Shown: positions 3,125 to 39,970, counted from the stretch's first letter. The stretch: 64,000 nt of DNA from Candidatus Saccharimonadales bacterium (GCA_038211855.1 JBBQVE010000003.1:33907-97906), one strand, 5' to 3'. The notes: generated by a model not told the origin, from the sequence alone. Translations and numbers: made by a program.

Positions 3125-4977
3125 AATCAGTGCTCGTTACCACCAGCTGGGACGACGGCCATATCCTGGATATGCGCTTGGCGGCACTACTCAAAAAATA
3201 TGGCTTAAAAGGTACTTTTTATGTATCACCACACGACCATGAATTCGCGGCCGATAACTTGTTGAGTGATCAGCAAGTGACCACGCTCGCGAAGTCATTT
3301 GAAATTGGTGCTCATACCATGACACACCCGCGACTGACGCAGATATCTGACAAAAAAGTCGTTAAAGAATTAGCAGACTCCAAGCAGCATCTAGAACGGG
3401 TAACGGGCACGACAATTACCGCGTTCTGCTATCCGGGTGGTAACTATGCCGCAAAGCACATTCCGCTTATAAAAAAAGTGGGCTTTGCATACGCGCGAAC
3501 CACCAAACGACTCAGCCTGAAGAGCGGTCCAGCCTACGAGGCGAGGACAACGGTCAATACCTATAATCACTATCAAGATTTGTGGAAGATTTCTAAACTG
3601 GCTCGCTTTCAGCCTCGGAAAATTTATCAGCTTTTTCACTGGGAAGAACTAGCAAAGTTTATGTTTGATAAAGTCCAAAAAGAGGGTGGCATCTTTCATC
3701 TGTGGGGGCATTCTTGGGAAGTCGACGGGCATAATGATTGGGAAAAACTGGAAGCAGTCTTCGAATATATTTCCGGTAAGAAAGACACCTCCTATGTGAC
3801 AAATGGGGAACTGCCTGCGCTGGAGACGAAAAACTTATTGATGGTTGCGCCTTATTTTCCACCACACACCGGTGGTCAAGAATTCTATGCTTATAATAAT
3901 GCGCTCCAGTTACAAAAAAAGTTCGGCTGGAACGTGACGATCGCGACTTCCGGGGGCATGGGGTGGCGAGTCAAAAAGCGTGAGCAAAACGGTCTCACCG
4001 TCTACGAGCTACCGTACTGGCATAGACTGTCGAATACGCCCATCAATCCGCTCTGGTACTTCATGATCCGAAGACTAATCACATCACGCAACATTGATGT
4101 TTTAAATACGCATGCGCCGGTTGTGGGCATGGCTGAATGTGCCCAACTGGCGGCCGGACGAGTTCCAGTCGTTTTCACCTATCACATGTTGAGCATGAAA
4201 AAAGGCGAAAAACGATTCGACTGGATTATCTGGCTCTACGAAAAACTCGTGCTGCCCTTGAGTCTCAAAAAAGCTCACCACATCATTGTTTCGTCAGATC
4301 CAGTGCGTCAAACATTTCTTAAGAATGTGTTACATAAAAGTCAGACTATTAGCACCGGCGTTGATAGTGAGCGGTTCTATCCATGTTCTAAAAGACTCGC
4401 TCATACACCGACATTGCTCTTCAACGGAACACTGAATAAAACGGGCACACACAAAGGGCTTAGCGTGTTAATTGACGCCCTGCCGCTCATCATTAAAAAA
4501 GTACCAATGGTAGATGTTTTGATTATTGGAGCTGGCGATGGACATCAAGAATATCAACAGCAGGCTGACAAGCTTGGCGTTGGACGTCACTTGGTTTTTC
4601 TGGGTACGAGGTTCGACGAAGAGCTCGTGCAGGTGTACCAATCGGCGCATATATTTGTGCAGCCGAGCCTCAATGATAGCTACCCGATGGCGCTGGTTGA
4701 GGCGCTTGCGACTGGCATGGCCTGCGTTGCCACCAGTGTTGGTGCATTGCCGGCAATCGTTGAAGATGGCGTGAATGGGCTTATAGTGCCACCCGGTGAC
4801 ACAGTGGCTTTGGCAGAAAAACTTATCTATTTGTTTGAGCATCCTGCAGTTGCTCGTAAGTTCGGTGCGGCTGGTCGCCGGAAAGCTGAAGTATCAATGT
4901 CTTGGGACAACAAAGTGGCCGCCTTAGATGTGGCACTCCATGCGGCAATCGACGGTCGGAAGGGACGTGTGCGATGA
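3121..4977 (+). CDS. Fusion protein: NodB-type polysaccharide deacetylase (N) + GT4 glycosyltransferase (C)
   Basis: The N-terminal ~230 aa carry TSWDDG, HTMTHP and CYPGG (NodB homology motifs). The remainder has APYFPPHTGGQEFY ... PSLNDSYPMALVEALATGMACVAT (GT4). GTG 3121 overlaps the upstream TGA. Confidence 0.8.
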   Translation: MKSVLVTTSWDDGHILDMRLAALLKKYGLKGTFYVSPHDHEFAADNLLSDQQVTTLAKSFEIGAHTMTHPRLTQISDKKVVKELADSKQHLERVTGTTITAFCYPGGNYAAKHIPLIKKVGFAYARTTKRLSLKSGPAYEARTTVNTYNHYQDLWKISKLARFQPRKIYQLFHWEELAKFMFDKVQKEGGIFHLWGHSWEVDGHNDWEKLEAVFEYISGKKDTSYVTNGELPALETKNLLMVAPYFPPHTGGQEFYAYNNALQLQKKFGWNVTIATSGGMGWRVKKREQNGLTVYELPYWHRLSNTPINPLWYFMIRRLITSRNIDVLNTHAPVVGMAECAQLAAGRVPVVFTYHMLSMKKGEKRFDWIIWLYEKLVLPLSLKKAHHIIVSSDPVRQTFLKNVLHKSQTISTGVDSERFYPCSKRLAHTPTLLFNGTLNKTGTHKGLSVLIDALPLIIKKVPMVDVLIIGAGDGHQEYQQQADKLGVGRHLVFLGTRFDEELVQVYQSAHIFVQPSLNDSYPMALVEALATGMACVATSVGALPAIVEDGVNGLIVPPGDTVALAEKLIYLFEHPAVARKFGAAGRRKAEVSMSWDNKVAALDVALHAAIDGRKGRVR

Positions 4978-7900
4978 AGCAAAACAAGCCCAGTATTATT
5001 CAGATTACTCCCTATTATCCACCGCACACCGGTGGCATGGAAAACGTGGTACGCGAGCTGTCTGGGCAACTCACAAAGGATGGGTTTTCGGTGAGTGTGT
5101 ACACCTCGGCAATCGCCGATACGACCGAATCGACAGTGATTGATAATTTTTCGGTCCTGCGTTTGAAAGCCACAGAAGTTGCGCATACACCACTCATTTG
5201 GCGGCTACTACCCAAGTTATGGCGTGCTCCAAAAAACTCGGTATTTCACATTCATCTCGCCATTGCAGGCATCCCCGAGGTTGCTTTGCTAGTCGCCAAA
5301 CTACGACATATCCCTACCGTCTTACACTTTCACCTCGATGTTGATCCGTCGGGGCATTTTGGCTTCTTACTGAAACTCTATAAGAAAACACTCTTTACGT
5401 GGACGCTTAGAACAGGTGACTGCGTGTTGGTGTTTTCGGAAGATCAGGCCGAATTTCTAGCGAAGAAATATGGTGTATTACCAGAAAAAATCCGCATTCT
5501 GCCAAATGGTGTCGGCGATGCATTCTTTATGCCAAAGAAGCGGATAGCACCCGTTAAAAAGCTCGATCTTCTGTATGTTGGCCGCTTGCACAAACAAAAA
5601 CGTGTTGATCGCATCATTGAAGCCATGGCTATGGTCAAGGCAGATTGTCAATTAACAATCATTGGTGACGGTGATGACCGTGCTGCCTTAGAAGCGCTCT
5701 CGAGCAGCTTAAAACTTTGCAATGTGCACTTTATGGGCAAGAAGACAGGTATCGATTTACGTGCCTACTATCGTCGTGCAGACGTCTTGCTGCTGCCATC
5801 CGACAAGGAGGGTATGTCCCTGGTTATGCTGGAGGCTTTGGCGGCCGGCCTGCCGATTATCGCCTCTGATGTACCCGGCATCAAAGAACACTTAACAGGC
5901 ACAAGTATTCTGGTCAAGAAGCCTTCAGCCACAACCTTCGCCCTCGCAATCGACGATCTTTATAAAAATCGACGTCTCTATATTCCAAGACTTTCCCTTG
6001 CAAGCAGAGCCTTGGCGAGGCGTTTTTCCTGGCAATCAGTGACCACTCAACTCGAAGAGGTATATAATTCGTTGCCGCAACAAAAGTTGACAAAACCAAC
6101 AAGCAAAAGAGGAAAAATTAAATTGTTTGTACTTCTATCACTCTGGTGGTTGGCTATCATTACACTTCGCACGCTACCCAGTGCTCCTGAAGTGGTGATT
6201 AATACGCTCGGCTTTAGTTTTTTACTGATTGTACCAGGTTATCTGACCATCATGTGTCTACGTCTAAAACAAGTGAATCCGCTGGCAAAAGTAATCATGG
6301 CCGTTGGTGTATCGCTGTTTGAACTCATGCTCATTGGACTGCTCGGCAACACCATTCTGCAGTGGCTTGGTGTAAAACGTCCGCTTGATACACCGTTTCT
6401 TCTTGGGGAGGTAAGTCTCTTATTGGCTGGTCTTTATTGTGTCGTATGGTGGCGAGCTGGTTCAGTGAAGTTTGACATAAAAAATAAGCTTTTGGCGCTG
6501 TTGCCGAGTCGCCTGGACGTCTTCTTTGCGGCCGTGCCACTGTTGTTTGTTTTATTGAGTGTCATCGGTGCAGTCAGCCAGAATAATGGTGGGAGTAACC
6601 TCTCGACAGTTATCGCCTTGGTTGCTATCACGGTTTATAGCGCAGCCCTAATTTTGAAGAGTAGAAAATTAAGTGATAACACGTTCATGGTGGCGCTATT
6701 CCTAATAGCACTATCGCTGCTTTTCATGACGAGTTTGCGTGGTTGGTTCACGACTGGACACGATATTCAACGTGAGTTTGGTGTCTTTGAGTTGGCCAAG
6801 AATAGCGGTGTCTGGAAGATACAAAGTTTCCGCGATCCTTATAATGCCTGCCTCAGCATTACCCTGTTGCCAACAATGTTCTTTAACGTATTGAAATCGT
6901 TTGACCCGTACATCTACAAAGTATTTTTTCAGATTATTTTTGCGCTAACGCCGCCGCTCTTGTTTATTTTCACTCGTAAATGGGCTTCGCGACCATTGTC
7001 GTATACCTCTGTGCTTTATTTTGTGGCGTTCCCAACTTTCTTTACTGATATGCCGATGCTCAATAGGCAGGAAATTGCCTTGCTGTTTTTTGCGCTGATG
7101 CTGTTTACCGCCTTCCAAGACTCTGTCAGTATGCGTGTGCGGCGAAATCTCTTTTTGGTGTTTGCAGCCGGTTTAATTTTGTCGCATTACTCGACCACCT
7201 ATTCGGTTGTCATCATATTGTTTATAAGCGTCGTATGCCGCCCGATTCTTCTGCGGTTAGCAAGGCCTCTAAAGGATAAGCAGGCCTTTCTACAGAGTGC
7301 CTTAAAGTCATTTCAGTCGACATCAAACGAATTGAAGCGCATTACGTTTACTTCTGTAGTGTTGATTATTGTCGGTAGTTTTTTGTGGACGAGTGTGCTG
7401 ACAAACACAGGGAATAATACGGGGAGGGTGATTAAAGAAACTTTTATTGCGGCGCTGCATAGTCTCAAAGAAGACGTACCAAAGTCGAACGAGACGAAGT
7501 ACAACTTGCTATCATATGAGCCGGCTGACCTACAGAAGGAGCTTGGTATATATAACAATAAAATCGTTGAGCCCGCTCGCCAGCGAGACAGTGCATCCTA
7601 TTATCCGGCGTCAGACTATAAGCAAGAGTCACTGACTATTTCGACTTCAAATATATTGCCGCTGACTACGTTCGGAAGATTTTTAAAAGCGCACGGCATT
7701 CCGGTTGAAAGCGTTAATACGATCACCAGGCAAGGGTTTGCGAAGATCTTGCAGCTGCTCATTTTGATTGGCTTACTGTATGTACTCTTTAGACGCGCTT
7801 TGTTGCGGTCGCTCGACACTGAATATATGACGCTGGTGGTCGGCTGTGTATTGTTTGTGGTGTTGCAGGTTGTGTTGCCAGTGATATCAGTGGAATATGG

Positions 7901-14988: not shown

Positions 14989-15014
14989 TCATATGCAACA
15001 ATCAAACTAAAAAA

Positions 15015-15036
15015 GCGGCAGATATGCCGCTTTTTT
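15015..15036 (+). terminator. Rho-independent terminator
   Basis: GCGGCA-gata-TGCCGC followed by TTTTTT. Confidence 0.7.
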
Positions 15037-15037
15037 A

Positions 15038-15154
15038 GTGGTGAGCTTAGCTGGATTTGACCGGAACCAAGCTTTGACACGACTGTTCACTTCATATACC
15101 ACTTACAGCGACCACTATGCACACTTCTTAATAGCACTACCTCAGTGTCATTGA
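15038..15154 (+). repeat. Tail unit U-Ile-1 (att-like module; family of six in this window)
   Basis: Starts with GTGGTG (mimic of the tRNA-Ile2 CCA end, reverse strand). The open frame reads VVSLAGFDRNQALTRLFTSYTTYSDHYAHFLIALPQCH*. 15082-15158 is ~85% identical to 16084-16161. Confidence 0.6.
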
Positions 15155-15238
15155 ATCAGTGATTATGTGAGTAACTGGTATCGATTACTTTACTGCTATA
15201 TTAGTAGCTAGTAGTGGACGCACTTCGAACTTTTAAGG

Positions 15239-15499
15239 CTACTTCGACGTTGACTGATGAAGAATCGAGGCAGCTAGTGTTTGATATGGCAAACCTTCTT
15301 TTGCGGCACGAGCCTTGAGCTTGTAAACATCTCGTTCAGAGAGTCTAATGTTGATATTCATTGTTTTATTTAGAGAGTTTTTGGCTATTTTAACTGCTTC
15401 ACGCTTTACAGCTTCGACATGCTCAACAGATACAAACTCGCCAGTTTCAAAATCTTCGAGTATTTTCTGTTCTTCCTTATCTAGATCGTAATCTTTCAC
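15239..15499 (-). CDS. brnA: BrnA-like / CopG (RHH) antitoxin
   Basis: 86 aa. The C-terminal NINIRLSERDVYKLKARAAKEGLPYQTLAASILHQ is the typical RHH antitoxin signature. 4-nt overlap with the upstream toxin gene. Confidence 0.7.
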   Translation of the reverse strand: MKDYDLDKEEQKILEDFETGEFVSVEHVEAVKREAVKIAKNSLNKTMNINIRLSERDVYKLKARAAKEGLPYQTLAASILHQSTSK

Positions 15500-15777
15500 T
15501 GTGTTTCTCCTTTCAAATATTTTTTCGTGGCTCTTCGGCTTGGGATAATTGTCTTTAGAAATATTTTTTCGTCATCCTCAACAAACGGTACAAGGTATAC
15601 ATATTCGGCAATTTGTACAATGTACACTTTTTGCTTTGGATATTTAAGGTAATTGGGGTGGGTCTCAACACTAAGTAAACGACCATCATTAATCGCTACG
15701 AGTACATCCTCAAAACAGATTTCACGCTCAGTTAAAAGTTCAACGTTTTTTTGTTTATTCCAATCATAATACCTCAC
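15496..15777 (-). CDS. brnT: BrnT-like (DUF497) toxin
   Basis: 93 aa. YDWNKQKNVELLTEREICFEDV ... IFLKTIIPSRRATKKY fits the BrnT pattern (WD..K...N......FE...........SAR.A...E...Y). Toxin-first order as in brnTA. Confidence 0.65.
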   Translation of the reverse strand: MRYYDWNKQKNVELLTEREICFEDVLVAINDGRLLSVETHPNYLKYPKQKVYIVQIAEYVYLVPFVEDDEKIFLKTIIPSRRATKKYLKGETQ

Positions 15778-15783
15778 TATATA

Positions 15784-15812
15784 ATTTTATGACATAACAT
15801 ATGATTAGTCAA
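15784..15812 (-). promoter_or_regulatory. Promoter of the brnTA module with a palindromic operator in the spacer
   Basis: On the minus strand: TTGACT-N17-TAAAAT. The spacer and -35 form the imperfect palindrome TGACTAATCATATGTTATGTCA. Confidence 0.5.
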
Positions 15813-16039
15813 TTTGATACTGGATTAAGTAAATATAAATGGTTTCGGTTAAATCTGAAGCCATAGTCTTAGGAGTGTCAGTTCTGGAACCAAACATTTG
15901 ATACGGATGAAGACTATGGCATTAGTGAAATTCGTCTCAAGATAGATGGAGAGCTAAGGAGAGTAGAGTTGAACCATTTTACTTCTAAGGTCGAAGTAGC
16001 ATAGGTTATAGTGTATGACTTTAACAGATACAAAGATGT

Positions 16040-16168
16040 CTGGTGGGCTTTAATGGATTTCATTGGAATCAAGTATTGTCACAACTGTCCACTTTATATA
16101 CTACTTACAGCGATCTATTAAGTACACTTCTTAATGACACTACCTCAGTGTCATTGAATCAACGCTAG
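16040..16168 (+). repeat. Tail unit U-Ile-2 (att-like module)
   Basis: Starts with CTGGTGGGC (mimic of the tRNA-Ile2 3' end). The open frame reads LVGFNGFHWNQVLSQLSTLYTTYSDLLSTLLNDTTSVSLNQR*. Contains the 9-bp stem AATGACACT-acctc-AGTGTCATT. Confidence 0.6.
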
Positions 16169-16231
16169 CGCCATATTGAGCTACAATAGTGGCCATCGAT
16201 GCTTATGAAAACCCTAACTACTTAAATCTTA

Positions 16232-17158
16232 CTATTGGAAATAAGGAAAGCCCCACCACTCATTAGCATTACACGTAATCATATGTTTATCGAGTAGACC
16301 AATTTTCGACATCTCATCTTCGCTTAATTCAAAGTTTGTAATAGAAAAATTTTCCTTGATTCTCTCTGGGCTAGTAGCTTTAGGTATAGCTGGAGTTTCT
16401 CTTTGATATGCCCAACGCAGCGCAACTTGTGCGACAGTTTTCTTATGGGCATCAGCTATCTCGATCATAGTTTCATCTTTAAGAACCGGATTACCCGATG
16501 AACTTAGAGGAGAATAGGCTGTTACGACCACGCCTTGAGATTTGCAAAACTTTATCAGATCATTCTGAGCATGATAAGGGTGCACTTCTATTTGATTCAT
16601 AACTGGCTTCGTCTTGGCATAATTCAACAGATCAATTAGCATTGCCGCACTGTAATTCGCAACGCCTATAGACTTAGCAAGGTTCTTGCTAGCCAAGTTT
16701 TCCATTGCACGCCATGTTTCCTGTAGTGGTACGTGTGCAAAACGTACAAGACCGTTTTCACCAAGTGGCTCAAGATCGCCTCCATACTCAAATGCTACAG
16801 CCCAGTGCATTAGGTATAGATCAAGATATTCCACTTGCAAATCTTGTAGTGTCTTCGTGTGGGCTTCATAGACATGGTCTGGTGCATGATCTGTATTCCA
16901 AAGCTTACTGGTAATGAATAGCTCCTCGCGCGTTACCAGACCATCTGCAATCGCTTGATGTATACCTTCACCAACTTCCGTCTCGTTACCATATACAGAT
17001 GCACAATCTATGTGTCGGTAGCCAGTTTTTATCGCATCCACAATGGACTGTTTTGCAGTATTTTTTGATAAGTTCCAAGTTCCAAAACCGAGCATTGGCA
17101 CTATAGCGTTATTGCTGAGGGTAATTTTATCCATAGGATAATTATTCCATAAAACCAT
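16232..17158 (-). CDS. Aldo-keto reductase (AKR family, 2,5-diketo-D-gluconate reductase-like)
   Basis: LSNNAIVPMLGFGTWN...GYRHIDCASVYGNE...LFITSKLWN...LDLYLMHW...IPKATSPERIKENF are classic AKR motifs. The start may be ATG 17134 (MDKITLSNN...). Confidence 0.85.
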   Translation of the reverse strand: MVLWNNYPMDKITLSNNAIVPMLGFGTWNLSKNTAKQSIVDAIKTGYRHIDCASVYGNETEVGEGIHQAIADGLVTREELFITSKLWNTDHAPDHVYEAHTKTLQDLQVEYLDLYLMHWAVAFEYGGDLEPLGENGLVRFAHVPLQETWRAMENLASKNLAKSIGVANYSAAMLIDLLNYAKTKPVMNQIEVHPYHAQNDLIKFCKSQGVVVTAYSPLSSSGNPVLKDETMIEIADAHKKTVAQVALRWAYQRETPAIPKATSPERIKENFSITNFELSEDEMSKIGLLDKHMITCNANEWWGFPYFQ

Positions 17159-17327
17159 TAAGTTAAGTAGCCCCTAGTAGACGCTCTTAGTACTTTTAGA
17201 CGTTGTGCCGTTTTATGAAAATATATCAGCGCTAGCGAGCAGGGAAGAGTGTATTTGAACCACTTAACACCTTTTGCGAAAGGATCACGAAAATTTTTAC
17301 TTATGTGTAACAGATTCAAACCGCTTA

Positions 17328-17403
17328 TGGTGGGGGTGGATGGACTTGAACCATCGACCAAAGGATTATGAGTCCTCTGCTCTAACCACTGAGCTACACC
17401 CCC
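17328..17403 (-). tRNA. tRNA-Ile2 (anticodon CAU, lysidine-type), CCA encoded
   Basis: Reverse complement GGGGGTGTAGCTCAGTGGTTAGAGCAGAGGACTCATAATCCTTTGGTCGATGGTTCAAGTCCATCCACCCCCACCA folds as a 76-nt cloverleaf. It closely resembles my recollection of E. coli ileX. A Met identity cannot be excluded from sequence alone. Confidence 0.85.
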
Positions 17404-22985: not shown

Positions 22986-23060
22986 CGCGGGATAGAGCAG
23001 TGGCAGCTCGTGTGGCTCATAACCACAAGGTCGCAGGTTCGAGTCCTGCTCCCGCTACCA
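22986..23060 (+). tRNA. tRNA-Met (anticodon CAU), initiator-like, CCA encoded
   Basis: CGCGGGATAGAGCAGTGGCAGCTCGTGTGGCTCATAACCACAAGGTCGCAGGTTCGAGTCCTGCTCCCGCTACCA forms a 75-nt cloverleaf. The unpaired 1:72 position (C:U) and overall similarity to bacterial tRNA-fMet (CGCGGG...GCTCATAACC...CCCGCAACCA) suggest initiator identity. Confidence 0.85.
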
Positions 23061-23076
23061 AGTTTGAATAACAGAT

Positions 23077-23106
23077 AGAGATTGGTTCCAAAACCAGTCT
23101 CTTTTT
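23077..23106 (+). terminator. Hairpin terminator after tRNA-fMet (part of the repeated L module)
   Basis: AGAGATTGG-ttccaaaa-CCAGTCTCT + TTTT. The 34-nt block 23077-23110 is identical to 24562-24595. Confidence 0.6.
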
Positions 23107-23229
23107 GATTTGATAGTTAATTCACCTCTGTTATTTAAGTTCGAGTCCTGTTTGGTCTTTTTGCTCATGCTTGCATTAGACTCTATGCACGTTGCAAGAT
23201 ATATATAAGACTAAATTCGAGGAGAAGTT

Positions 23230-24423
23230 ATGCCAGAGCTAATGAGCCCAGAGACTCAGGAAGATTTTAAACGGACAATAGGTCGCGTTGAAGGGGTAAC
23301 CGGCTATGAAAGACCAGCAGCATTTGCTCTGGGATTAGCCACTATTGAGGGTGAGGGCGAAGACAAAAAAGTCATCGAAGTACAATACACCCGCAGAAAC
23401 TACGCAGAAAACTTTGGGACAGCTGCAGTATTGGCTGTAGCTACACAACAATGGACAGGCTTAGAGACAGGAGAATTTTTGCTGAGACCTCATCAATTAG
23501 ATACTGTGACTCGTTTGTTTAGGCCATTTTTCGAAAATGGTCTAGTCTTACCAGGACATGCTAATATCGACACACTGATGGCGATGAGAGATGTGCAAGT
23601 TGGCGGATTATTTCCTAAATCAGGTGCGGATAATATCTCAAACCCACGTGTACCAATCTTAGGTGTAATACGCAGCTGGGATGACGAACCAGTCAGTGTT
23701 GCCGACATCTTTCTAAGACTCTATGCACTCTCTGACCGGCACCGCTTGCCAAACACAGCAAATATTGTGCCTGGACGCGATTTTCCAAAGCTACCAAACA
23801 CAGTGATGAGCGAGTCACTTGGTACGTTTAGCGTTGACAGATGGAATGCAATGTCGGAAAGAATCGCCTTTAGGGGCTTATCAACTGCCGTTCGTGGATT
23901 GGATAAATTCCCACGTATGACAGACCATGTGGTGCCAACGGGTGTTAGAATTGCCGACCCAAGCAGAGTACGTCTCGGAGCGCATCTTGGTTCTGGTACG
24001 ACCGTAATGCATGAAGGCTTTGCTAACTTTAACGCTGGTACAGTAGGCGCAAGTATGGTTGAAGGTAGAATCAGCGCTGGCGTACTTGTAGGTGAAGGTT
24101 CCGACGTGGGCGGCGGTGCATCAATTATGGGCACTATGTCAGGCGGTGGTAAAGAAGTCATTAGTATAGGAGAAAAATGTCTCTTAGAGGCTAATAGCGG
24201 AATAGGAATATCATTAGGAGATAACTGTAGAGTCGAAGCAGGCACATATGTAAAGTCGACCACTAAGGTCAAACTACCAAACGGCGACTGGGTAAAAGCT
24301 GATAGACTGTCAGGCCAAGATAATATGATGCTACGCAGAAGTTCTGTCACTGGCGAAGTAGAACTGCTACCAAACGTAGGTACAGAATGGGGCGGTCTTA
24401 ACTCAGTGCTTCATACTAACTAG
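23230..24423 (+). CDS. dapD: 2,3,4,5-tetrahydropyridine-2,6-dicarboxylate N-succinyltransferase, long (Pseudomonas-type) form
   Basis: DKFPRMTDHVVPTGVRIADPSRVRLGAHLGSGTTVMHEGFANFNAGTVGASMVEGRISAGVLVGEGSDVGGGASIMGTMSGGGKEVISIGEKCLLEANSGIGISLGD is a hexapeptide-repeat domain. It is near-colinear with my recollection of long-form DapD. GAGGAG SD. Confidence 0.8.
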   Translation: MPELMSPETQEDFKRTIGRVEGVTGYERPAAFALGLATIEGEGEDKKVIEVQYTRRNYAENFGTAAVLAVATQQWTGLETGEFLLRPHQLDTVTRLFRPFFENGLVLPGHANIDTLMAMRDVQVGGLFPKSGADNISNPRVPILGVIRSWDDEPVSVADIFLRLYALSDRHRLPNTANIVPGRDFPKLPNTVMSESLGTFSVDRWNAMSERIAFRGLSTAVRGLDKFPRMTDHVVPTGVRIADPSRVRLGAHLGSGTTVMHEGFANFNAGTVGASMVEGRISAGVLVGEGSDVGGGASIMGTMSGGGKEVISIGEKCLLEANSGIGISLGDNCRVEAGTYVKSTTKVKLPNGDWVKADRLSGQDNMMLRRSSVTGEVELLPNVGTEWGGLNSVLHTN

Positions 24424-24435
24424 TGTTTTAAAGTT

Positions 24436-24546
24436 CTAGTGTCGTGCGGTAGAGTAAACAACTCCTGCTTGAACCCTATAAAGTTGTAACCATCGAACTA
24501 ACTCGCTAAAGATAAGGTTCCAATTCGAATGTACAAGGGCTACCAA
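24436..24546 (-). repeat. Tail unit U-fMet-1 (att-like module)
   Basis: On the minus strand, TTGGTAGCC (mimic of the tRNA CCA end) opens the frame LVALVHSNWNLIFSELVRWLQLYRVQAGVVYSTARH*. 19/36 aa identical to the unit at 26230-26340, with no indels. Confidence 0.6.
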
Positions 24547-24561
24547 GTGAAAATAAAAGAG

Positions 24562-24591
24562 AGAGATTGGTTCCAAAACCAGTCTCTTTTT
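24562..24591 (+). terminator. Second copy of the L-module hairpin
   Basis: Identical to 23077-23106. Confidence 0.55.
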
Positions 24592-24806
24592 GATTACAAC
24601 GGACTTCCGGGTATATCCCCAGTTCTAAGATTTTAATGAGAAACCTGGGCATCGAGACATGAAACAGTGTTGTTAGTAGGGAAACACTTTATGCACACGG
24701 AAGCCTTAAGTATAGACTAATTGTCAATTTTTCGCAGTAAGCTATGTTATATGATGACCGAATTATTTAGCATATATTGAGAGTACTTAATAATAAGAAA
24801 GCTGAA

Positions 24807-25181
24807 ATGCGAAGCATAGTTTTGAACAAGTCAAGAGTATCCACCGTTATCTCAAAAAGTATCCTTACTATATCTATTATTTTATCAATGATAGGAATCT
24901 CGGTTGTGGCATCACCTATGGCGAGTGCTTATTACGGCTCATCGGTAATGGCCGTTAGTGCACCGGGATGTGGGACGACCTGCCCGAACGGACCGGAATA
25001 CATAATCCCTCAATTCAAAAAAGTATACATGATCTGTTACAAAGACATGACATGGCGATATACCAATGGTCGGTGGTCCAATAGATGGTATCGGGTTATC
25101 CCTGATGGATGGGGCTTTGCTGTTTACACGCCGGCGCCTGCTGTGGCCAATCCAATGTCAGTTGGCTGGTGTAACTACTAG
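24807..25181 (+). CDS. Small secreted Cys/Trp/Tyr-rich hypothetical protein (124 aa)
   Basis: ORF 24777..25181; ATG 24807 taken as the start. Signal/anchor ILTISIILSMIGISVVASPMASA. The mature part carries 5 Cys. A strong terminator follows. Confidence 0.55.
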   Translation: MRSIVLNKSRVSTVISKSILTISIILSMIGISVVASPMASAYYGSSVMAVSAPGCGTTCPNGPEYIIPQFKKVYMICYKDMTWRYTNGRWSNRWYRVIPDGWGFAVYTPAPAVANPMSVGWCNY

Positions 25182-25196
25182 TCAATTTGCAGATAA

Positions 25197-25230
25197 ATAG
25201 AGATTCACCTGCCGTGAATCTCTATTTTTA
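25197..25230 (+). terminator. Rho-independent terminator
   Basis: ATAGAGATTCAC-ctgcc-GTGAATCTCTAT + TTTTT. Confidence 0.7.
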
Positions 25231-25244
25231 TGACACCTATTTTT

Positions 25245-25369
25245 GCAGGTTCGAGTCTTGCTGCCTACTCATTAACAGGTGATTCCTTACGTACTTCATT
25301 AACTATCTTCCACATAGTTATCAGTTCTTGTTTCACTTGGTTCCATTTCGGCTCTGGCGTGGCTACCAA
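25245..25369 (-). repeat. Tail unit U-fMet-2 plus adjacent tRNA T-arm/acceptor copy
   Basis: 25245-25268 GCAGGTTCGAGTCTTGCTGCCTAC copies the tRNA-fMet 3' part. The minus-strand frame from TTGGTAGCC (25369) reads LVATPEPKWNQVKQELITMWKIVNEVRKESPVNE*, 17/34 identical to the unit at 42032-42136. Confidence 0.6.
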
Positions 25370-25484
25370 GTTTGAATATCAGCAAGAGATTGGCCTCAAA
25401 ACTAAACTCTATTATATTTGGTGCAAAAACTGACCTCTGTTTAGAAGATTTCAGTCTTACTCGGTGATCTGATAATATCGATGT

Positions 25485-26225
25485 ATGGAAATACTAGGAC
25501 TGCCCAGCTTTAGAATTGCAGCCAATATAAAAGGTAGTGAAGATAGTAATAAGGTCGCAATCTTAATGCCAGGTCGATTGGATACTAAAGACTATGCCAA
25601 CTTCCTTAGTCATTTAAATTTTCTTTCAATTCAGGGCTTCTATACTTTGGCGATTGACCCACCTGGTACGTGGGATAGTTCTGGTGACTTAAGTATCTTT
25701 ACAACCACCAATTACTTGAAAGTTATTCATGAAATTATCGACTACTTTGGCAATAGACCCACTCTTTTACTTGGCCATAGCCGTGGTGGAGCTACTGCTA
25801 TGCTTGCCTCGTGCAATCCAGCAGTATCTGGAGTTGTAGTAGTTAACTCAGCATTAGGGTCACCTACACCACCAGAGCTAAGTGATATTGAAGATGGAAC
25901 TCTACCTGAATACCGTGATTTACCACCTGGCAATATACGAACCGAGAAAAAGAAACGCTTCAACTTACCCATGGACTATTTTGAAGATGGTGTCAAACAC
26001 GACCCGGAAGGTACATTAGCCAGATTTAAGGGGCCTAAACTTATCGTACATGCAGATAAAGACGAGTTTGAAACCTTAGAGCGGGTTAGTGAAGTGTTCG
26101 ACAGGCTTTCTGAACCTAAAACATTTCTAAAGATTAATAGTACGCACGATTACCGACTTTACCCCGAGGCTATTAAAGCAGTTGAAGATGGACTAGGAAA
26201 ATTTCTAAAAGACTATTTTTACTAA
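25485..26225 (+). CDS. Alpha/beta-fold serine hydrolase
   Basis: 246 aa. Nucleophile elbow GHSRGG, late Asp (HADKDE) and His (STHDY). Confidence 0.75.
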   Translation: MEILGLPSFRIAANIKGSEDSNKVAILMPGRLDTKDYANFLSHLNFLSIQGFYTLAIDPPGTWDSSGDLSIFTTTNYLKVIHEIIDYFGNRPTLLLGHSRGGATAMLASCNPAVSGVVVVNSALGSPTPPELSDIEDGTLPEYRDLPPGNIRTEKKKRFNLPMDYFEDGVKHDPEGTLARFKGPKLIVHADKDEFETLERVSEVFDRLSEPKTFLKINSTHDYRLYPEAIKAVEDGLGKFLKDYFY

Positions 26226-26229
26226 GGTT

Positions 26230-26340
26230 CTAGTCCGCTGCGGTAGAGTAAGTAATAGGCATCACGCCACTAATAACCCCCAGCCAGCGGACTAACTCTC
26301 TACTGATATCGTTCCAATGTGAATGTACTTGGGCTACCAA
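26230..26340 (-). repeat. Tail unit U-fMet-3 (att-like module, last of the array)
   Basis: The minus-strand frame from TTGGTAGCC reads LVAQVHSHWNDISRELVRWLGVISGVMPITYSTAAD*. Its last codons (TACCGCAGCGGACTAGAACC) mimic the tRNA acceptor/T-arm. Confidence 0.6.
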
Positions 26341-26343
26341 TAA

Positions 26344-26372
26344 AAAAAGCCTTATCGAAAGATGGGCTTTTT
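26344..26372. terminator. Bidirectional terminator
   Basis: AAAAAGCC...ATC-gaaa-GAT...GGCTTTTT with an A-run on one side and a T-run on the other. It overlaps the stop of 26371..26823. Confidence 0.6.
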
Positions 26373-26823
26373 ACTTTGTGACTAAATCATTGAGCTGTTC
26401 TAGTGCTTGCTTGAGACCGGACTCCATGCCTCTAAGGTACTGATCTGCCTGTGGGCCGGCTGAGAGTACTTCTGAAGTTATGTTGAGTGTAGTATTGCCA
26501 TCAGTTTCTGTAAATAACACCGTGTGTTGTACTTCAAATAGTTTATTACCCTCTGGATCGAGCGGCGAATTGGTCATGACTAATTTTGCTGGTTCTTCGA
26601 CTACTATGAATTCACCTGTCATCGGCATGATGCGTCCATCCGGTGCTTTAGTATCCACACGCAATTGACCACCCGGCCGCACATCAAACTCACAGGAAGG
26701 AACGCTATACGGGGCTGGCATATACCATTGTTTGAACTGTTCAGGCTGTGTCCAGGCATCCCAGACTGCTTGGCGAGGTGCCTCGAATGTGTATTGTATG
26801 TTTAAGGGTTTATAGTCGTTCAT
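26371..26823 (-). CDS. SRPBCC/AHSA1-domain protein
   Basis: 150 aa. APRQAVWDAWTQPEQFKQWYMP... is typical of Aha1/START-like SRPBCC proteins. Translationally coupled to the ArsR gene (ATGA). Confidence 0.75.
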   Translation of the reverse strand: MNDYKPLNIQYTFEAPRQAVWDAWTQPEQFKQWYMPAPYSVPSCEFDVRPGGQLRVDTKAPDGRIMPMTGEFIVVEEPAKLVMTNSPLDPEGNKLFEVQHTVLFTETDGNTTLNITSEVLSAGPQADQYLRGMESGLKQALEQLNDLVTK

Positions 26824-27131
26824 ACTGAGCCTTTCTTTAAATATTCTTCTAAGCTATTGAACTGCTGGCTCCAATATATCTGGAACGAATTGACCCAGTC
26901 CTCTAACCGCAAAAACGGCTCGGCATTGAGCGCATAAATCCGTTGCTGGGCAATTGGCTGCACTCGTACCAGGCCGGCTTTGTTGAGCGTATGCAAATGC
27001 TTTGATGCCTGGGGCTGGCGTATTTTAAGTAGGGAAGCAACTTCATTCACTGAGCGGGGCTGCTCACGCAACAACTCAATAATCTTGAGTCGATTTGGCT
27101 CGGCTAACGCGTTGAATGTTTTGGTATCCAT
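26820..27131 (-). CDS. ArsR/SmtB-family transcriptional regulator
   Basis: FNALAEPNRLKIIELLREQPRSVNEVASLLKIRQPQASKHLHTLNKAGLV is a wHTH. ATG 27131 sits 6-7 nt after TTGACA-N17-TTATAT. The longer ORF start 27167 lies upstream of that promoter. Confidence 0.8.
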   Translation of the reverse strand: MDTKTFNALAEPNRLKIIELLREQPRSVNEVASLLKIRQPQASKHLHTLNKAGLVRVQPIAQQRIYALNAEPFLRLEDWVNSFQIYWSQQFNSLEEYLKKGSV

Positions 27132-27152
27132 ACAACAAATATAATTCAATGC

Positions 27153-27176
27153 ATATATTCTTGTCAAGGAATATAT
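27153..27176. promoter_or_regulatory. Inverted repeat, candidate ArsR operator
   Basis: ATATATTCTTG-t-CAAGGAATATAT overlaps the -35 of the arsR-like gene. Confidence 0.45.
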
Positions 27177-27228
27177 GTTTTTTTGAAGTGACTCCCCCTT
27201 GGACTCAACATCTAGGTATACTAGTTAT

Positions 27229-28074
27229 ATGCAGATAAATGCATATATAGTGAACGCTTTCACTGCCAATAGTGCTGGTGGCAATGGTGCCGGCGTCGTT
27301 TTGGACGCTGAAAATCTATCAGATCAACAGATGCTCGATATCACGAAAGAACTGGGATTCTCCGAGACAGCTTTTGTGAGTGTGAGTAAAGTTGCAACTT
27401 ACAAAGTTCGTTTTTTTACTTCGACAGAAGAAGTTAATTTGTGCGGTCATGCGACGATTGCAACATGGTCGCTCTTGCATCAAAGAGGTCTTGCGAAAGC
27501 GGGCAACCATATGCAGGAAACACTCGCTGGAATATTAGGAATTGATATTCAACACGACGGCTCAGTGTTTATGCAGCAAACTGAGCCGCTGTTTTTGGAA
27601 ACTGCTCAGGCAAGCGAAGCTGCTGTGGTACTTGGTATAGAAGAGGTATGTATAGATTCAAAGCTCCCAGTTCAGGTTGTTTCAACAGGCTTGAGAGATC
27701 TATTTGTACCGATACGCACAAAGAAAGACTTATTGCGCATCAAACCTGATCTTCCAGCAATGATTACGTTAAGCAAAAAGTATAATGTCACCGGCTTGCA
27801 TGTATTTGCATTGAATAAAGGCCAAATTACGGCTTTTGCACGGAATTTTTCACCGAGGGTTGGCATCGATGAAGAATCAGCTACGGGTACTTCCAATGGA
27901 GCACTACTTTGTTACTTAAAGAACTATGGTAAGTTGCTGCAGACTCAATCGTATTGTATAGAACAGGGTGAATCGATGGGGAACTTATCGTATATTCTTG
28001 GAAAATTTGTTGATGGAAGAGTGTGGGTCGGTGGACAGGCGACCATTCTGAGTCAAAGGTCTATAACCGCTTAG
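27229..28074 (+). CDS. PhzF-family isomerase
   Basis: MQINAYIVNAFTANSAGGNGAGVVL...ETAFV...FFTSTEEVNLCGHATIA fits the PhzF family. ATG 27229 lies 6 nt after a TATACT -10. Confidence 0.8.
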   Translation: MQINAYIVNAFTANSAGGNGAGVVLDAENLSDQQMLDITKELGFSETAFVSVSKVATYKVRFFTSTEEVNLCGHATIATWSLLHQRGLAKAGNHMQETLAGILGIDIQHDGSVFMQQTEPLFLETAQASEAAVVLGIEEVCIDSKLPVQVVSTGLRDLFVPIRTKKDLLRIKPDLPAMITLSKKYNVTGLHVFALNKGQITAFARNFSPRVGIDEESATGTSNGALLCYLKNYGKLLQTQSYCIEQGESMGNLSYILGKFVDGRVWVGGQATILSQRSITA

Positions 28075-28092
28075 ATTTGCTATGATTAAGTT

Positions 28093-29052
28093 ATGAATGA
28101 TGACAAACTGAAACCGATTGAAGATCCAAACATTATCCGCTCCGGAAGGTTGAAAGTAGGCGATGGCCACGAACTGTACTGGGTTGATTGGGGGAACAAG
28201 AACATCAAGAATCCCATCTTTTATATTCATGGCGGTCCGGGCGGCGGTTTCGATAAAAAGTATTTTTTGCGCTTTGACCCTAAGGTACAACGCGTTGTTT
28301 TTCATGATCAACGCGGTTCCGGGCGCAGTACGCCGTTTGCTTCTATCGATCACAATACTTCGCAGGATCTTGTTGAAGATATTACGAAGTTAAAGAATGA
28401 GCTTAGTTTCGATAAAATATCCTTGTACGGTTTTTCGTGGGGTTCAACACTGTCGCTGCTATATGCAATCGCCTACCCCGAAGTTGTTGAAAAGATGTTG
28501 ATTGGCGGCATATTTTTGGCCAGAAAAGTAGATCAAGATTATTATCTGAGAGGCGGGGTCGCTTCGCATTTTCCAGAGGCTTGGGAAGCTTTCACGGCAC
28601 TCGTCCCAAAAAATGAACAGGCAACTATCGCGGAGTACTACAAGAAAAAGATGTTTGGTGATGATAAAGTCGAGTGCGAAAAATTTGCGAAAGCTTGGAT
28701 GATGTACGAGTCTTCGATATTAAAACTAGATTATAGACCGGAAAAAGTCGAGGAAGACCTGGCCGATTTCGCACCCGTAACGCTGGCATATCAAGAAGCC
28801 CACTACATACTTAATGACTGCTTCATAGAAGAAGACTACATTATTAAAAACGCCCATACGTTGCAGGATACACAGATTGTCATCGTGCAAGGACGCTATG
28901 ACTTCATATGTATGCCATCTGCCGCCTACGATCTGAAGAACGCACTCGGTACCAAGGCAACACTACAATTTGTCATGTCGGGACATGATGGCAGCGATAC
29001 GGTGCAACGCTCTGTCAATCAAGCGTACGTGAATATCCTCTGGCCCGCCTAG
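28093..29052 (+). CDS. pip: Proline iminopeptidase (prolyl aminopeptidase, alpha/beta hydrolase)
   Basis: HELYWVDWGNKNIKNPIFYIHGGPGGG...HDQRGSGRS...GFSWGSTLSLLYA...GRYDFICMP are the classic Pip motifs. Confidence 0.8.
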   Translation: MNDDKLKPIEDPNIIRSGRLKVGDGHELYWVDWGNKNIKNPIFYIHGGPGGGFDKKYFLRFDPKVQRVVFHDQRGSGRSTPFASIDHNTSQDLVEDITKLKNELSFDKISLYGFSWGSTLSLLYAIAYPEVVEKMLIGGIFLARKVDQDYYLRGGVASHFPEAWEAFTALVPKNEQATIAEYYKKKMFGDDKVECEKFAKAWMMYESSILKLDYRPEKVEEDLADFAPVTLAYQEAHYILNDCFIEEDYIIKNAHTLQDTQIVIVQGRYDFICMPSAAYDLKNALGTKATLQFVMSGHDGSDTVQRSVNQAYVNILWPA

Positions 29053-29086
29053 TCGTAGCTTGTAGCATCCTCTATACTCTAAAGCA

Positions 29087-29620
29087 GTGAAGAAAAGCAT
29101 AAAAATTATCAACAAAAAGACTCGCTTTATTATTTCGCTCGCGTTAGTGTTTGTCATCGGTGGCATTAGTGGTGTGACGGCTGCTTTTTTAGTGCGTAAC
29201 CACAATCCACAGGTGTTAGTTTGGACAACCGACAAGAGTATTAAGGCTCCTGACGGTCTCGTGAGTTATATTGAAAATAGCCGCAAGGGCGACTGCGAGA
29301 GCTACAAAGGAACAAGCTCTGCGAAGGGGAAGGCGGTGTTTGCGATTTTTGAATCTGCCCAGAATCGGCTCGCCAAAATCAGCTACGGCTGTGGCGATAA
29401 TTTGAGTAGTGAATTCTATGGCTACATATTTGCGGTGCGGACAGATACCAAATGGAAACTTTTTATACCACAGGAGTACCTAGTAAACCTGAAGAGCCTC
29501 AGCGAAAAATGGAGAGGTCCGATCGCACTGCCATCATGCAAATATCTGAATGATAATGACGTTCCTGTTTCATTCGAAAGTCTCTGTGTTGGCACCAACC
29601 ATGAATACATCACACGCTAA
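29087..29620 (+). CDS. Membrane-anchored hypothetical protein
   Basis: ORF with N-terminal TM (FIISLALVFVIGGISGVTAAFLV). No recognisable domain. Confidence 0.5.
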   Translation: MKKSIKIINKKTRFIISLALVFVIGGISGVTAAFLVRNHNPQVLVWTTDKSIKAPDGLVSYIENSRKGDCESYKGTSSAKGKAVFAIFESAQNRLAKISYGCGDNLSSEFYGYIFAVRTDTKWKLFIPQEYLVNLKSLSEKWRGPIALPSCKYLNDNDVPVSFESLCVGTNHEYITR

Positions 29621-29680
29621 ATATTATAAAATCAAAATAGGTATTTACAAATAGCATAACCCTGTTATACTTTGGGGGTT

Positions 29681-29800
29681 ATGAAACGATATACACCGCT
29701 ACAAAATGTAATGACCACAAACCCAGTGTTTGGCGGCTCTCTTGCAATTTGTGTTTCTGCCAAAGGAAATACAGCTGGCATATCGGACTCATGTAGATAA
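29681..29800 (+). CDS. Candidate leader/small ORF (39 aa) upstream of the MFS gene
   Basis: TGTTATACT -10 at 29663-29671, GGGGG, then ATG 29681. Product MKRYTPLQNVMTTNPVFGGSLAICVSAKGNTAGISDSCR. A weak terminator follows. Confidence 0.3.
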   Translation: MKRYTPLQNVMTTNPVFGGSLAICVSAKGNTAGISDSCR

Positions 29801-29827
29801 AAATATCTTTTCTTACATCGCGATATG

Positions 29828-29848
29828 CCTCCACCTCGGAGGTTTTTT
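29828..29848 (+). terminator. Weak hairpin + T6 between the leader ORF and the MFS gene
   Basis: CCTCC-acctc-GGAGG + TTTTTT. ATGCCTCC (29825-29832) can alternatively pair with GGAGGCAT (29870-29877). Confidence 0.4.
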
Positions 29849-29943
29849 AATAGCAAAAATCAATCACATGGAGGCATCTCGGGGCTTAGGAATCTAAGTA
29901 ACCCATTCATCTCACTATTAACTAACGGAAAGGGGTCTACAGA

Positions 29944-37526: not shown

Positions 37527-37603
37527 GGCGATGTAGCTCAGTTGGTTAGAGCACAGGACTCATAAGCCTGGGGTCACAAGTTCAAATCTTGTCATCGCTA
37601 CCA
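37527..37603 (+). tRNA. tRNA-Met (anticodon CAU), elongator-like, CCA encoded
   Basis: GGCGATGTAGCTCAGTTGGTTAGAGCACAGGACTCATAAGCCTGGGGTCACAAGTTCAAATCTTGTCATCGCTACCA forms a 77-nt cloverleaf. It closely resembles my recollection of E. coli elongator tRNA-Met. TGGTATAAT -10 at 37508-37516. Confidence 0.9.
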
Positions 37604-39101: not shown

Positions 39102-39147
39102 GGAACCATTATACGACTAATATTTACAGGTTATAAGTGTTGATATT

Positions 39148-39300
39148 TTATTTTGGAACTGTTTGTTGTACGAAGTCTTTTGCAATTACTTCTAGGAGAG
39201 AAATAATATCCGCGATTTGCGCATCGGAAAACTCCTTATACGGTTTGCCGAGAAGCTTTCGTGCCTCTTTAATTGTAATTATTGGCGAATCTTGAGACAC
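39148..39300 (-). CDS. Candidate 50-aa protein between recombinase and DUF5681-like gene
   Basis: GTG start. Product VSQDSPIITIKEARKLLGKPYKEFSDAQIADIISLLEVIAKDFVQQTVPK looks protein-like. However, there is no SD and it starts right after a terminator hairpin (39303-39330). Confidence 0.3.
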   Translation of the reverse strand: MSQDSPIITIKEARKLLGKPYKEFSDAQIADIISLLEVIAKDFVQQTVPK

Positions 39301-39934: not shown

Positions 39935-39970
39935 CCTAGTACGGGTGCCTTTTTAGTTTAGGAGCATTTT

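Follow-up and report, generated by a model that had tools for sequence, protein, structure and literature searches.

Tandem gene cassettes at a tRNA-Ile2 gene of a Candidatus Saccharimonadales bacterium and their possible origin in a tRNA-targeting large serine recombinase family

Results

Two cassettes closed by homologous tail units follow tRNA-Ile2

The window analysed here comprises 64,000 nt on one strand of the genome of a Candidatus Saccharimonadales bacterium (GCA_038211855.1 JBBQVE010000003.1:33907-97906), and we focus on its region 15039-17327, in which two small gene cassettes, one with an aldo-keto reductase (AKR) gene and one with a putative toxin-antitoxin pair, follow the 3' end of a tRNA gene and are each closed by a tail unit. 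ARAGORN identified three tRNA genes with the anticodon CAU in the window, located at 17328-17403 on the minus strand and at 22986-23060 and 37527-37603 on the plus strand. The first of these borders the cassettes; its position is directly upstream of a divIC-like gene in most of 52 related loci, and the homologues of this divIC-like gene are named Candidatus Saccharibacteria or Saccharimonadales (TM7, Candidate Phyla Radiation (CPR)). Since a tRNA-Ile(UAU) stands in for tRNA(CAU) beside divIC in the most distant loci, we assign the gene at 17328-17403 to tRNA-Ile2, in agreement with the first-pass annotation, which had been made from the sequence alone. A PP-loop protein encoded at 43768-44721 (Pfam ATP_bind_3) is presumably of the TilS type.

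All features of the cassette pair are co-oriented with the tRNA on the minus strand. Head 1, a non-coding flank of 169 nt (17159-17327), begins immediately past the encoded CCA end of the tRNA (...CCCCCACCA, 17328), which we propose to be the integration junction and attB half-site B, and contains the boxes GTTTGAAT (17314-17321, reverse complement) and GGTTCAAAT. It leads to the AKR gene (16232-17158; DkgA/DkgB-like, Pfam Aldo_ket_red E 5.9e-50, NCBIfam DkgA-like model below cutoff), which had been recognised correctly before, and to the tail unit U2 (16041-16168), which ends cassette A (16041-17327, 1,287 nt). Cassette B (15039-16040, 1,002 nt) opens with head 2, a flank of 263 nt (15778-16040) between U2 and the toxin gene that aligns with head 1 in common blocks, and is closed by the tail unit U1 (15039-15158). 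U1 adjoins a bidirectional host terminator found in a terminator scan (15006-15039), which had likewise been noted at this place and forms the outer boundary of the array; presumably it represents the original flank of the tRNA, i.e. attB half B'. The cargo of cassette B consists of a BrnT-like toxin (15496-15777; Pfam BrnT_toxin E 2.1e-6, 28.4 bits, cutoff 34.5) and a CopG/BrnA-like antitoxin (15239-15499; Pfam CopG_antitoxin E 4.6e-6, 27.7 bits, cutoff 28). The 4-nt overlap of the two genes and their toxin-first order are consistent with the earlier designation as brnTA, whereas both proteins stay below the Pfam cutoffs and lack an NCBIfam match, and we use both names tentatively. The box GTTTGAAT had been reported at tRNA-Ile2 and tRNA-fMet alike, and it does occur at both, although the coordinates were off by one and are 23062-23069 at the latter; it is located 5 nt more distant from the tRNA-Ile2 end than from the tRNA-fMet end.

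U1 (15039-15158) and U2 (16041-16161) are 81.8% identical over 121 nt (E 7e-28), with alignment blocks of 79% over 73 nt and 91% over 43 nt, and the homology of the two units, which was part of the first-pass annotation, is far above chance. Both units start about 65 nt past the stop codon of the cargo, run in the same direction as the cargo and end in ...CACCA, and the TGGTG end of each touches the next head or the host terminator. The G+C content is 0.37-0.41 in the array compared with 0.45-0.52 in its surroundings, and it is lowered 3' of all three tRNA(CAU) genes (0.37-0.42 versus 0.45-0.52 elsewhere). A contig of an independent Logan assembly agrees with 15277-17368 at 100% identity, which argues against a mis-assembly of the locus, and sample SRR19962015 carries identical contigs.

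With only two unit copies, 1 kb apart, and with no polymorphism or junction evidence for these two cassettes, the cassettes could also be thought of as immobile, the unit of about 120 nt being a local duplicate of an intergenic or 3'-UTR segment or a REP/MITE-like repeat, and the genes being ordinary accessory genes of a variable region of low G+C content. A perfect 10-bp hairpin in the U2 fold would fit such a repeat, but the folding energies of U1 and U2 are ordinary (z -0.3 to -0.7). Moreover, the units sit exactly at the cassette ends, the layout repeats that of arrays with proven recombinase-derived tails (see below) and the AKR is cassette cargo elsewhere. A search with a 20-mer of U1/U2 (up to 3 mismatches allowed) returned two places only in the 64 kb, with 0 expected, so that within the window the unit does not behave like a common REP-like element, a possibility raised together with the first-pass annotation. 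We therefore regard immobile cassettes as very unlikely.

The orientation of the units, their distance from the stop codon and their CACCA ends would also be expected of structured RNA elements that resemble tRNAs, such as signals at the mRNA 3' ends by which the cargo transcripts are processed or stabilised. However, ARAGORN calls no tRNA at the units, the folds of six units were no better than those of shuffled sequences (RNA energy parameters; z +0.7 to -1.1, no significant structure), and conservation in the sister family tracks codons on the opposite strand. We rejected this explanation, which has next to no probability.

A large serine recombinase at tRNA-Met carries attP in its own gene end

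Among 40 open reading frames (ORFs) of the window that were scanned, with the small ORFs covered in part, the sole recombinase was a large serine recombinase (LSR) encoded at 37560-39101 on the minus strand, antisense to tRNA-Met (Pfam Resolvase, E 3.8e-29, and Recombinase). It is absent from the first-pass annotation, yet encoded in the same window. The gene belongs to an element of 4,532 nt (37604-42135) at tRNA-Met (37527-37603), the tRNA and the element together spanning 37527-42135 on the plus strand. The LSR, with the C-terminus ...AINSDLVAMTRFELVTPGL, has a frame that crosses the tRNA-Met junction and ends in ...AINSD-LVAMTRFELVTPGL (stop), its last 14 codons being antisense to the 3' end of tRNA-Met. 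At its other end, the island carries a tail (42033-42135), which shares 70-77% identity with that of the second tRNA-fMet cassette described below, and upon circularisation of the island the LSR frame would run on through this tail as LVGVIGTNWNQIKRELIAMWQIVNTVREETTVKV (stop). The integrated LSR gene probably stays functional, since it loses no more than the last ~34 codons and gains 14 from the tRNA in their place. The island also encodes a HipA-like kinase (41023-41985, below the Pfam cutoff) and a DUF5681-like protein (39387-39710), which are possibly addiction or defence cargo.

The reconstructed LSR of 533 aa, used as query, retrieved 1,155 homologues at E<1e-20. Most of them have a length of ~513 aa and cover 94-95% of the query, while a few of 532-534 aa cover 100% of it and share the terminal motif WNQIKRELITMWQIVNE. 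Antisense-tRNA peptide ends (e.g. LVAATGIEPVTLGL, LVGVAGLEPATNRL) were present in 99 of 113 full-length homologues, which indicates that many further tRNAs are targets of the family as well; a WNQ extension was found in at least 6 of the 113. One of the extended LSRs, P0076, is encoded on five contigs from five samples, which are circular permutations of a unit of 4,499 bp. The terminal overlaps of these contigs (141, 141, 55, 30 and 30 nt) equal the assembler word length, the last two being one below k=31. The attP region of this circle is 78-81% identical to the tails of the window over 103-116 nt (E 2e-22). A peptide profile of the tails, built from non-window tails and LSR C-termini and run on 3,160 six-frame segments of the window, recovers the four fMet/Met tails there with E-values from 1e-12 to 1e-16.

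From this we conclude that attP in this family lies inside the 3' end of the LSR gene, within its last ~34-35 codons. The fMet/Met tails are therefore the severed end of the LSR gene, i.e. its cut-off last ~34 codons, and represent the P arm. The part of the LSR gene before them makes up the head, i.e. the P' arm, which doubles as a terminator-like hairpin behind the tRNA. The crossover is located at or beside CTACCA, which is common to tRNA and tail. The two units at tRNA-Ile2 had been read in the first-pass annotation as opening with a degenerate copy of the tRNA 3' end, a reading that does not appear to hold, as the well-sampled fMet/Met units encode the last ~34 LSR codons on the opposite strand.

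The 4,499-bp circle, which makes up the whole contigs L061-L065, encodes the full-length LSR, a protein of 304 aa matching phrog_25239 and four small ORFs that matched neither Pfam nor PHROG. As genes recognisable as replication or capsid genes were not detected on it, the circle may be a plasmid, an excised island or a satellite.

Recombinase-less cassette arrays are widespread in Saccharibacteria

A sister array on the plus strand (22986-26339) consists of tRNA-fMet (22986-23060) and three recombinase-less cassettes, which carry a DapD-like cargo (23061-24545, tail 24433-24545), a 134-aa protein (24546-25368, tail 25249-25368) and an alpha/beta hydrolase (25369-26339, tail 26227-26339). Its tails reach 30-48 bits with a position weight matrix (PWM) of the half-site. 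The tRNA-Ile2 locus repeats the order of tRNA, flank, co-oriented cargo and tail unit twice, so that the common grammar of the two arrays, as proposed earlier, was borne out. The region 26371-31116, past the last recognisable tRNA-fMet tail, encodes AHSA1/SRPBCC, ArsR, PhzF, alpha/beta hydrolase and MFS genes with a G+C content of 0.42-0.45 across most of its length; these accessory-type genes may be older cassettes with decayed tails.

With a DNA profile, tails were detected behind tRNA-fMet in a dozen divIC loci, always 3' of and co-oriented with the tRNA, with eight consecutive tails in locus L026. Another 56 tails were found on 21 metagenome contigs, in arrays of up to 8 and all co-oriented; the tRNA upstream of these arrays, where present, was tRNA-fMet (6 contigs) or tRNA-Met (1 contig). 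No LSR gene or fragment was present in the arrays examined, including the 21 metagenome contigs. The 20 cassettes that could be delimited from tail to tail are 552-3,714 nt long, with 848 nt as the median, most of them contain a single gene, and 23 of their 29 cargo ORFs are co-oriented with the tRNA. Internal array junctions consist of a tail joined to a head and are thus attP-like, and the last tail adjoins the host flank. The arrays of L037 and L042 have flanks that are 96% identical, but they differ in the order and content of their segments, and one breakpoint lies exactly after CCA. The uniform short heads, the lack of decaying LSR genes and the strong conservation of the junction-proximal 30 nt argue against merely rotting full elements, and we infer that the cassettes may be units moved now or recently by an LSR acting in trans.

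Cargo of the kind seen at tRNA-Ile2 also occurs in these arrays. In other Saccharibacteria, tRNA-fMet-type arrays contain AKR homologues with 75-78% identity as cargo, namely directly past a tail in L072 and in a three-gene cassette between two tails in L075, and a RelB/YafQ toxin-antitoxin pair is cargo in L066.

Several cassette genes have a conserved box, GGTTCGAGTC...GTTTG(A/G)TATGAT, just upstream of their start codons (L026:11614-11674, L026:12419-12479, L037:11345-11376, L042:2500-2532), which may be a cassette-borne promoter, and one rearrangement breakpoint between L037 and L042 is located at this box. The candidate promoter box reads TTCGAGTC...GTTTGRTATGAT.

The tRNA-like look of the tails fits an attachment half-site

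Of 20 measurable tails, 18, among them the circular attP, have GGTTCC at a distance of exactly 30 nt from the junction, whereas the T-loop GGTTC lies 25 nt before the CCA end in every tRNA. The corresponding motifs of U1 (GGTTCC...CTCACCA) and U2 (GATTCC...GCCCACCA) are both exactly 30 nt away from the junction. The tails are most conserved in the junction-proximal 30 nt, and the opposite strand of the half-site with GGTTCC codes for a conserved Asn-Trp-Asn. For serine integrases, it was described by Rutherford et al. that the zinc-ribbon-domain (ZD) motif of attB is located 5 bp nearer to the centre than that of attP (PMC3783163). The offset of 30 versus 25 nt corresponds to this 5-bp shift, and the tRNA-like look of the tails is best read as an attP P half-site that mimics the attB B half-site and not as a displaced tRNA fragment.

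The latter would be expected if islands of a tyrosine integrase had accreted at tRNA-Ile2, each unit opening with a displaced, decayed copy of the tRNA 3' part and the remainder being an attP arm. tRNA 3' ends are the standard targets of tyrosine integrases, for which tandem arrays are known, and exact tRNA repeats of 19-42 nt flank small inserts at tRNA-Ile2 in L019 and L046. In our window, the last 25 nt of the tRNA match U1 at 17 and U2 at 16 positions, and it was from this similarity that the units had been said to open with a degenerate tRNA 3' end. Since about 5.4 such matches are expected per shuffled window, this similarity alone is at chance level, and the T-loop-like motif is 30 and not 25 nt away from the CCA end in both units, without an in-register repeat. 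In addition, there is no tyrosine recombinase (Phage_integrase) among the scanned ORFs, and the homologous-looking fMet/Met tails are demonstrably LSR gene ends. An origin of U1 and U2 in tyrosine-integrase islands is thus improbable in our view. A further tRNA-3'-half-like fragment, previously placed at 15958-15995, is indeed present in head 2, near 15947-15982, but amounts to a weak extra junction-like site there (PWM, 4.1 bits).

The small gene-less inserts mentioned above, with a length of 160-255 nt, lie directly past tRNA-Ile2 or tRNA-fMet and are bounded by exact repeats of 16-42 nt of the tRNA 3' part (L019:2480-2664, L021:4455-4636, L046:9560-9810, L042:1388-1645, L037:10682-10851). 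In several of them, the outer repeat is a copy of the T-arm with an insertion of 55-68 nt in the T-loop.

U1 and U2 bear a weak resemblance to the tails of the LSR family

The proposal that one family targets tRNA-fMet, tRNA-Met and tRNA-Ile2 is supported by related recombinases at the syntenic tRNA-Ile2. In L066, an LSR homologue with 69% identity is located at tRNA-Ile2 beside divIC, and its tail, which reads LVGALEPKWNQIKRELITMWQIVNQVREESPVTV (stop), is found 5.6 kb away from the tRNA; L067 is a second case. The plus strand of U2 is an open frame, LVGFNGFHWNQVLSQLSTLYTTYSD..., reading LVGFNGFHWNQVLSQL... up to a stop codon, and the segment LVGFNGFHWNQV on this strand, opposite to the cargo, resembles LVGALEPKWNQI in the tail of the LSR element in L066. 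On their opposite strand the units read LVGxxxxxWNQV, with the Trp codon lost in U1, and LVGx5WNQ[IV] has the frame and spacing seen in the LSR tails; where the family LSRs have the C-terminal pattern LVxxxxxxWNxI..EL..W..., U2 reads LVGFNGFHWNQVLSQLSTLY. Compared with the LSR C-terminus of the circular element by BLASTP, the U2 peptide scored 22.7 bits (E 2e-5 in this single comparison, 16/26 positives, no gaps). U2 was also the best non-family match in the window both for the tail-peptide profile (E 0.16) and for the 36-nt half-site PWM (6.4 bits, in exact register), and we propose 16041-16076 as the P half-site of its attP. U1 is more decayed than U2, with a Trp to Arg replacement and a frameshift relative to U2, which is consistent with the outer cassette being the older one.

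Several results weigh against this assignment. The profile match of U2 is not significant window-wide, and its PWM score is below the maxima of shuffled windows (mean 9.0). A BLASTP comparison of the U2 peptide with another tail peptide gave no match, and the distal two thirds of U1 and U2 are unlike all sampled tails. Neither head has detectable protein-level similarity to the pre-junction 3' region of the LSR, a full-length LSR profile run on six-frame translations of the window revealed no LSR remnant in any head, and DNA BLAST with four LSR 3' ends did not match the Ile array. The 5-nt displacement of the box GTTTGAAT in the Ile heads relative to the fMet heads has to be added. A phmmer search of 1.84 billion proteins with the U2 peptide (0 matches) revealed no LSR whose C-terminus fits, the unit 20-mer had no match in JGI metagenome contigs or IMG/VR, about 70 related loci contained nothing unit-like according to BLAST, and a search for the Ile-type unit by a degenerate box gave nothing in the loci fetched. 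For the AKR and brnTA cassettes, we detected neither an empty site nor a variant with one cassette nor a circular form. Moreover, classical serine integrases are not known to take attL as a target, so that tandem accretion would need a relaxed choice on the B' side, which is plausible, the flanks of the many target tRNAs being unrelated.

As to an empty site in a sister genome, the closest divIC relatives (62-81% identity) are on short contigs that end at or near the tRNA. None of the fetched loci has orthologues of the left-flank genes or of brnTA, the 392-aa flank protein had no record in an exact look-up, and look-ups of the divIC and AKR of the window returned short Logan contigs of one sample only. 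Many metagenome contigs (L002, L008, L020, L036, L042, L051, L060 and L001/L074) end at most ~100 nt away from tRNA-Ile2 or inside it. These contig ends are consistent with strain-variable content, and tRNA sequence common to species would also explain them.

The lack of a match among sampled tails and the heads that are not recognisably LSR-derived would be accounted for if the same stacking logic operated at the tRNA-Ile2 3' end but with a different, unsampled recombinase lineage, whose att arms or gene ends U1 and U2 would then represent, the likeness to the LSR family being convergent or coincidental. Indeed, at least two LSR lineages that look unrelated use tRNA-Ile2; the second, with ~23% identity to the LSR of the window, is encoded antisense at the tRNA-Ile2 3' end in four loci, with frames that end inside the tRNA (L012:1589-3151, L010:7365-8927, L049:7707-9275, L026:7662-9226), and the small inserts with exact direct repeats of the tRNA in L019, L021 and L046 are in line with it as well. 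On the other hand, G[GA]TTCC in its 30-nt register and LVGx5WNQ[IV] in its frame and spacing are placed as in the LSR tails, the single BLASTP comparison with the C-terminus of the circular-element LSR gave a match, and the tail of the second lineage in L010 is quite unlike U1 and U2, with a 15-nt exact repeat followed by a hairpin. We thus consider an unsampled lineage unlikely, though less so than tyrosine-integrase islands.

The second lineage itself (L012 type) was ruled out as the source of U1 and U2, the L010 tail being unlike the two units. The exact 15-nt repeat in L010, TGGTGGGGGTGGAAA, occurs at 2688 and 8909, which suggests an element of 6.2 kb. In three related genomes, the anticodon loop of tRNA-Ile2(CAU) is split by a group I intron (Rfam RF00028, 58-69 bits) with an HNH-type ORF inside (reverse strand; L010:8908-9600, L026:9208-9900, L049:9257-9600), and because of this interruption ARAGORN misses these tRNA genes.

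Taking both sides together, we consider it highly probable that site-specific integrations at the CCA end of tRNA-Ile2 left U1 and U2 behind as stacked remnants, and we favour, with moderate confidence, that the cassettes belong to this tRNA-targeting LSR family. As no LSR gene or LSR fragment is present in 15039-17327, they can then only be recombinase-less derivatives. The tRNA-Ile2 pair is the weakest instance of the cassette system, though it led us to it.

Proposed mechanism and predicted junctions

In the model that we propose, two small elements integrated in tandem at the CCA end of tRNA-Ile2 make up 15039-17327, and they would be members or close cousins of the LSR family. In this family, recombination at or next to ...ACCA of the tRNA severs the last ~34 codons of the LSR; the severed codons become a tail of ~110-120 nt at the far end of the element, antisense to the tRNA, and the truncated LSR gene then reads into the tRNA. 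The ~30 junction-proximal bases of the tail serve as the P half-site, imitating the T-arm and acceptor of the tRNA (the B half-site) with GGTTC shifted 5 bp outward. At the tRNA-Ile2 locus, U1 and U2 would be such LSR-end tails, and the AKR and brnTA cassettes would be recombinase-less members, in which two att arms (head and tail) enclose one cargo operon co-oriented with the tRNA. The cassettes would have been inserted serially next to tRNA-Ile2, the tRNA-proximal AKR cassette being the younger one and the tail U1 being the more decayed. The LSR would most likely act in trans, from a source such as the gene at 37560-39101 or a free circle of ~4.5 kb.

If the cassettes are mobile, this model predicts particular junctions. 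An empty tRNA-Ile2 site should read ...CATCCACCCCCACCA / CTAAAAAAGCGGCATATCTGCC, a locus without the AKR cassette ...CCCCCACCA / GACATCTTTGTATCTG and a locus without the brnTA cassette ...AAAGCCCACCA / CTAAAAAAGCGG; the junctions of the circular cassettes should be ...CATTAAAGCCCACCA / TAAGCGGTTTGAATCTG for AKR and ...CAGCTAAGCTCACCA / GACATCTTTGTATC for brnTA.

A 31-nt direct repeat elsewhere in the window (3845-3875 and 5005-5035, 84% identity, with the end CACACCGGTGG) is located in or near a glycosyltransferase region and is unrelated to the cassettes.

Discussion

In this study, we describe a tandem pair of gene cassettes at tRNA-Ile2 and place it next to the recombinase-less arrays and the LSR of the same window. 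As a tentative proposal, Saccharibacteria might possess a tRNA-anchored cassette platform run by serine recombinases, in which the LSR is supplied in trans by autonomous elements of 4.5-5.6 kb that also occur as free circles. At the CCA ends of tRNA-fMet, tRNA-Met and tRNA-Ile2, recombinase-less and mostly single-gene cassettes with an attP of ~170 bp made from the ends of a former recombinase gene would be captured, arranged in tandem and reshuffled, and the AKR and brnTA cassettes would be two such units. Such a platform would be functionally analogous to integrons and SCC islands.

Functionally, the system is closest to the composite islands of the staphylococcal cassette chromosome (SCC) and to integrons, but it is a member of neither. 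In SCC composite islands, an LSR integrates at the 3' end of a conserved housekeeping gene, which stays intact, and tandem stacks include recombinase-less pseudo-SCC elements that keep the junction sites. Integration by an LSR at the 3' end of a conserved gene, tandem stacking and recombinase-less units are thus common to both SCC/SCCmec and the arrays described here. Differences concern the target, which is the tRNA CCA end in Saccharibacteria and the 3' end of rlmH (orfX) for SCC, and the size of the units, since the cassettes have a median of 0.85 kb with mostly one gene, whereas SCC elements comprise tens of kb. Moreover, attP lies within the recombinase gene here, so that integration swaps the C-terminus of the enzyme, and the host is a CPR bacterium. 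The best NCBIfam match of the window LSR is CcrB, but its score of 89 bits is far below the cutoff of 900, and the enzyme does not belong to the Ccr family.

The likeness to integrons lies in co-oriented, mostly single-gene cassettes of ~0.5-1.3 kb beside a fixed anchor, with a terminal recombination unit of ~60-130 nt, common toxin-antitoxin cassettes, and an order and content that vary between close relatives. In contrast to the integron IntI, which is a tyrosine recombinase, the enzyme is a serine recombinase here, and its gene is usually not a neighbour of the array. A tRNA 3' end serves as the anchor, the recombination units are derived from coding sequence and lack an attC-like hairpin of the whole unit (see the fold z values above), and the cassette heads of Saccharibacteria carry a terminator-like hairpin and the cassettes probably have promoters of their own.

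Genomic islands of tyrosine integrases reportedly occupy tRNA and tmRNA genes and form tandem arrays. They resemble the elements described here in that the 3' part of a tRNA is targeted, the integrase gene is located at the island end by the tRNA, and tandem accretion leaves tRNA-like boundaries. They differ in the duplicated identity block, in place of which only about 5-6 shared bases (CTACCA) are found here, in the boundary, which is an attP half-site with shifted geometry here, and in the enzyme, which is an LSR. Archaeal integrases of the SSV1 type, which are tyrosine recombinases, have attP within the int gene, which is partitioned upon integration. An attachment site inside the recombinase frame and parts of the split gene that mark both element ends are features of both systems, but here only the last ~34 codons are removed and are replaced by 14 tRNA-encoded codons, by a serine enzyme in a bacterial host. 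Finally, cis-mobilisable elements (CIMEs) and other integrase-less elements are att-bounded DNA without an integrase that accretes beside an integrase-carrying relative, as in our arrays, but those elements use tyrosine integrases and are much larger, and mobilisation in trans is an inference for the cassettes.

In the open-access full texts that were searched, no description of LSR/tRNA cassette arrays in Saccharibacteria or the CPR was found. The genomes of these bacteria are very small, and the ways in which they acquire accessory genes and exchange them are poorly understood. If the proposal is correct, compact arrays behind particular tRNAs would be a main site of their gene flux, built by an LSR with the attachment site in its own gene. 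This would be a third route to gene-cassette arrays beside integrons, with their tyrosine recombinase and attC hairpins, and SCC islands, and it would mean that serine integrases systematically use tRNA 3' ends, a niche that is usually credited to tyrosine integrases. The natural attP/attB pairs and the many tRNA specificities in the LSR C-termini could be of interest to genome engineers. For annotation, the units of ~120 nt and the tRNA-like boxes would explain why metagenome contigs frequently break at these tRNAs.

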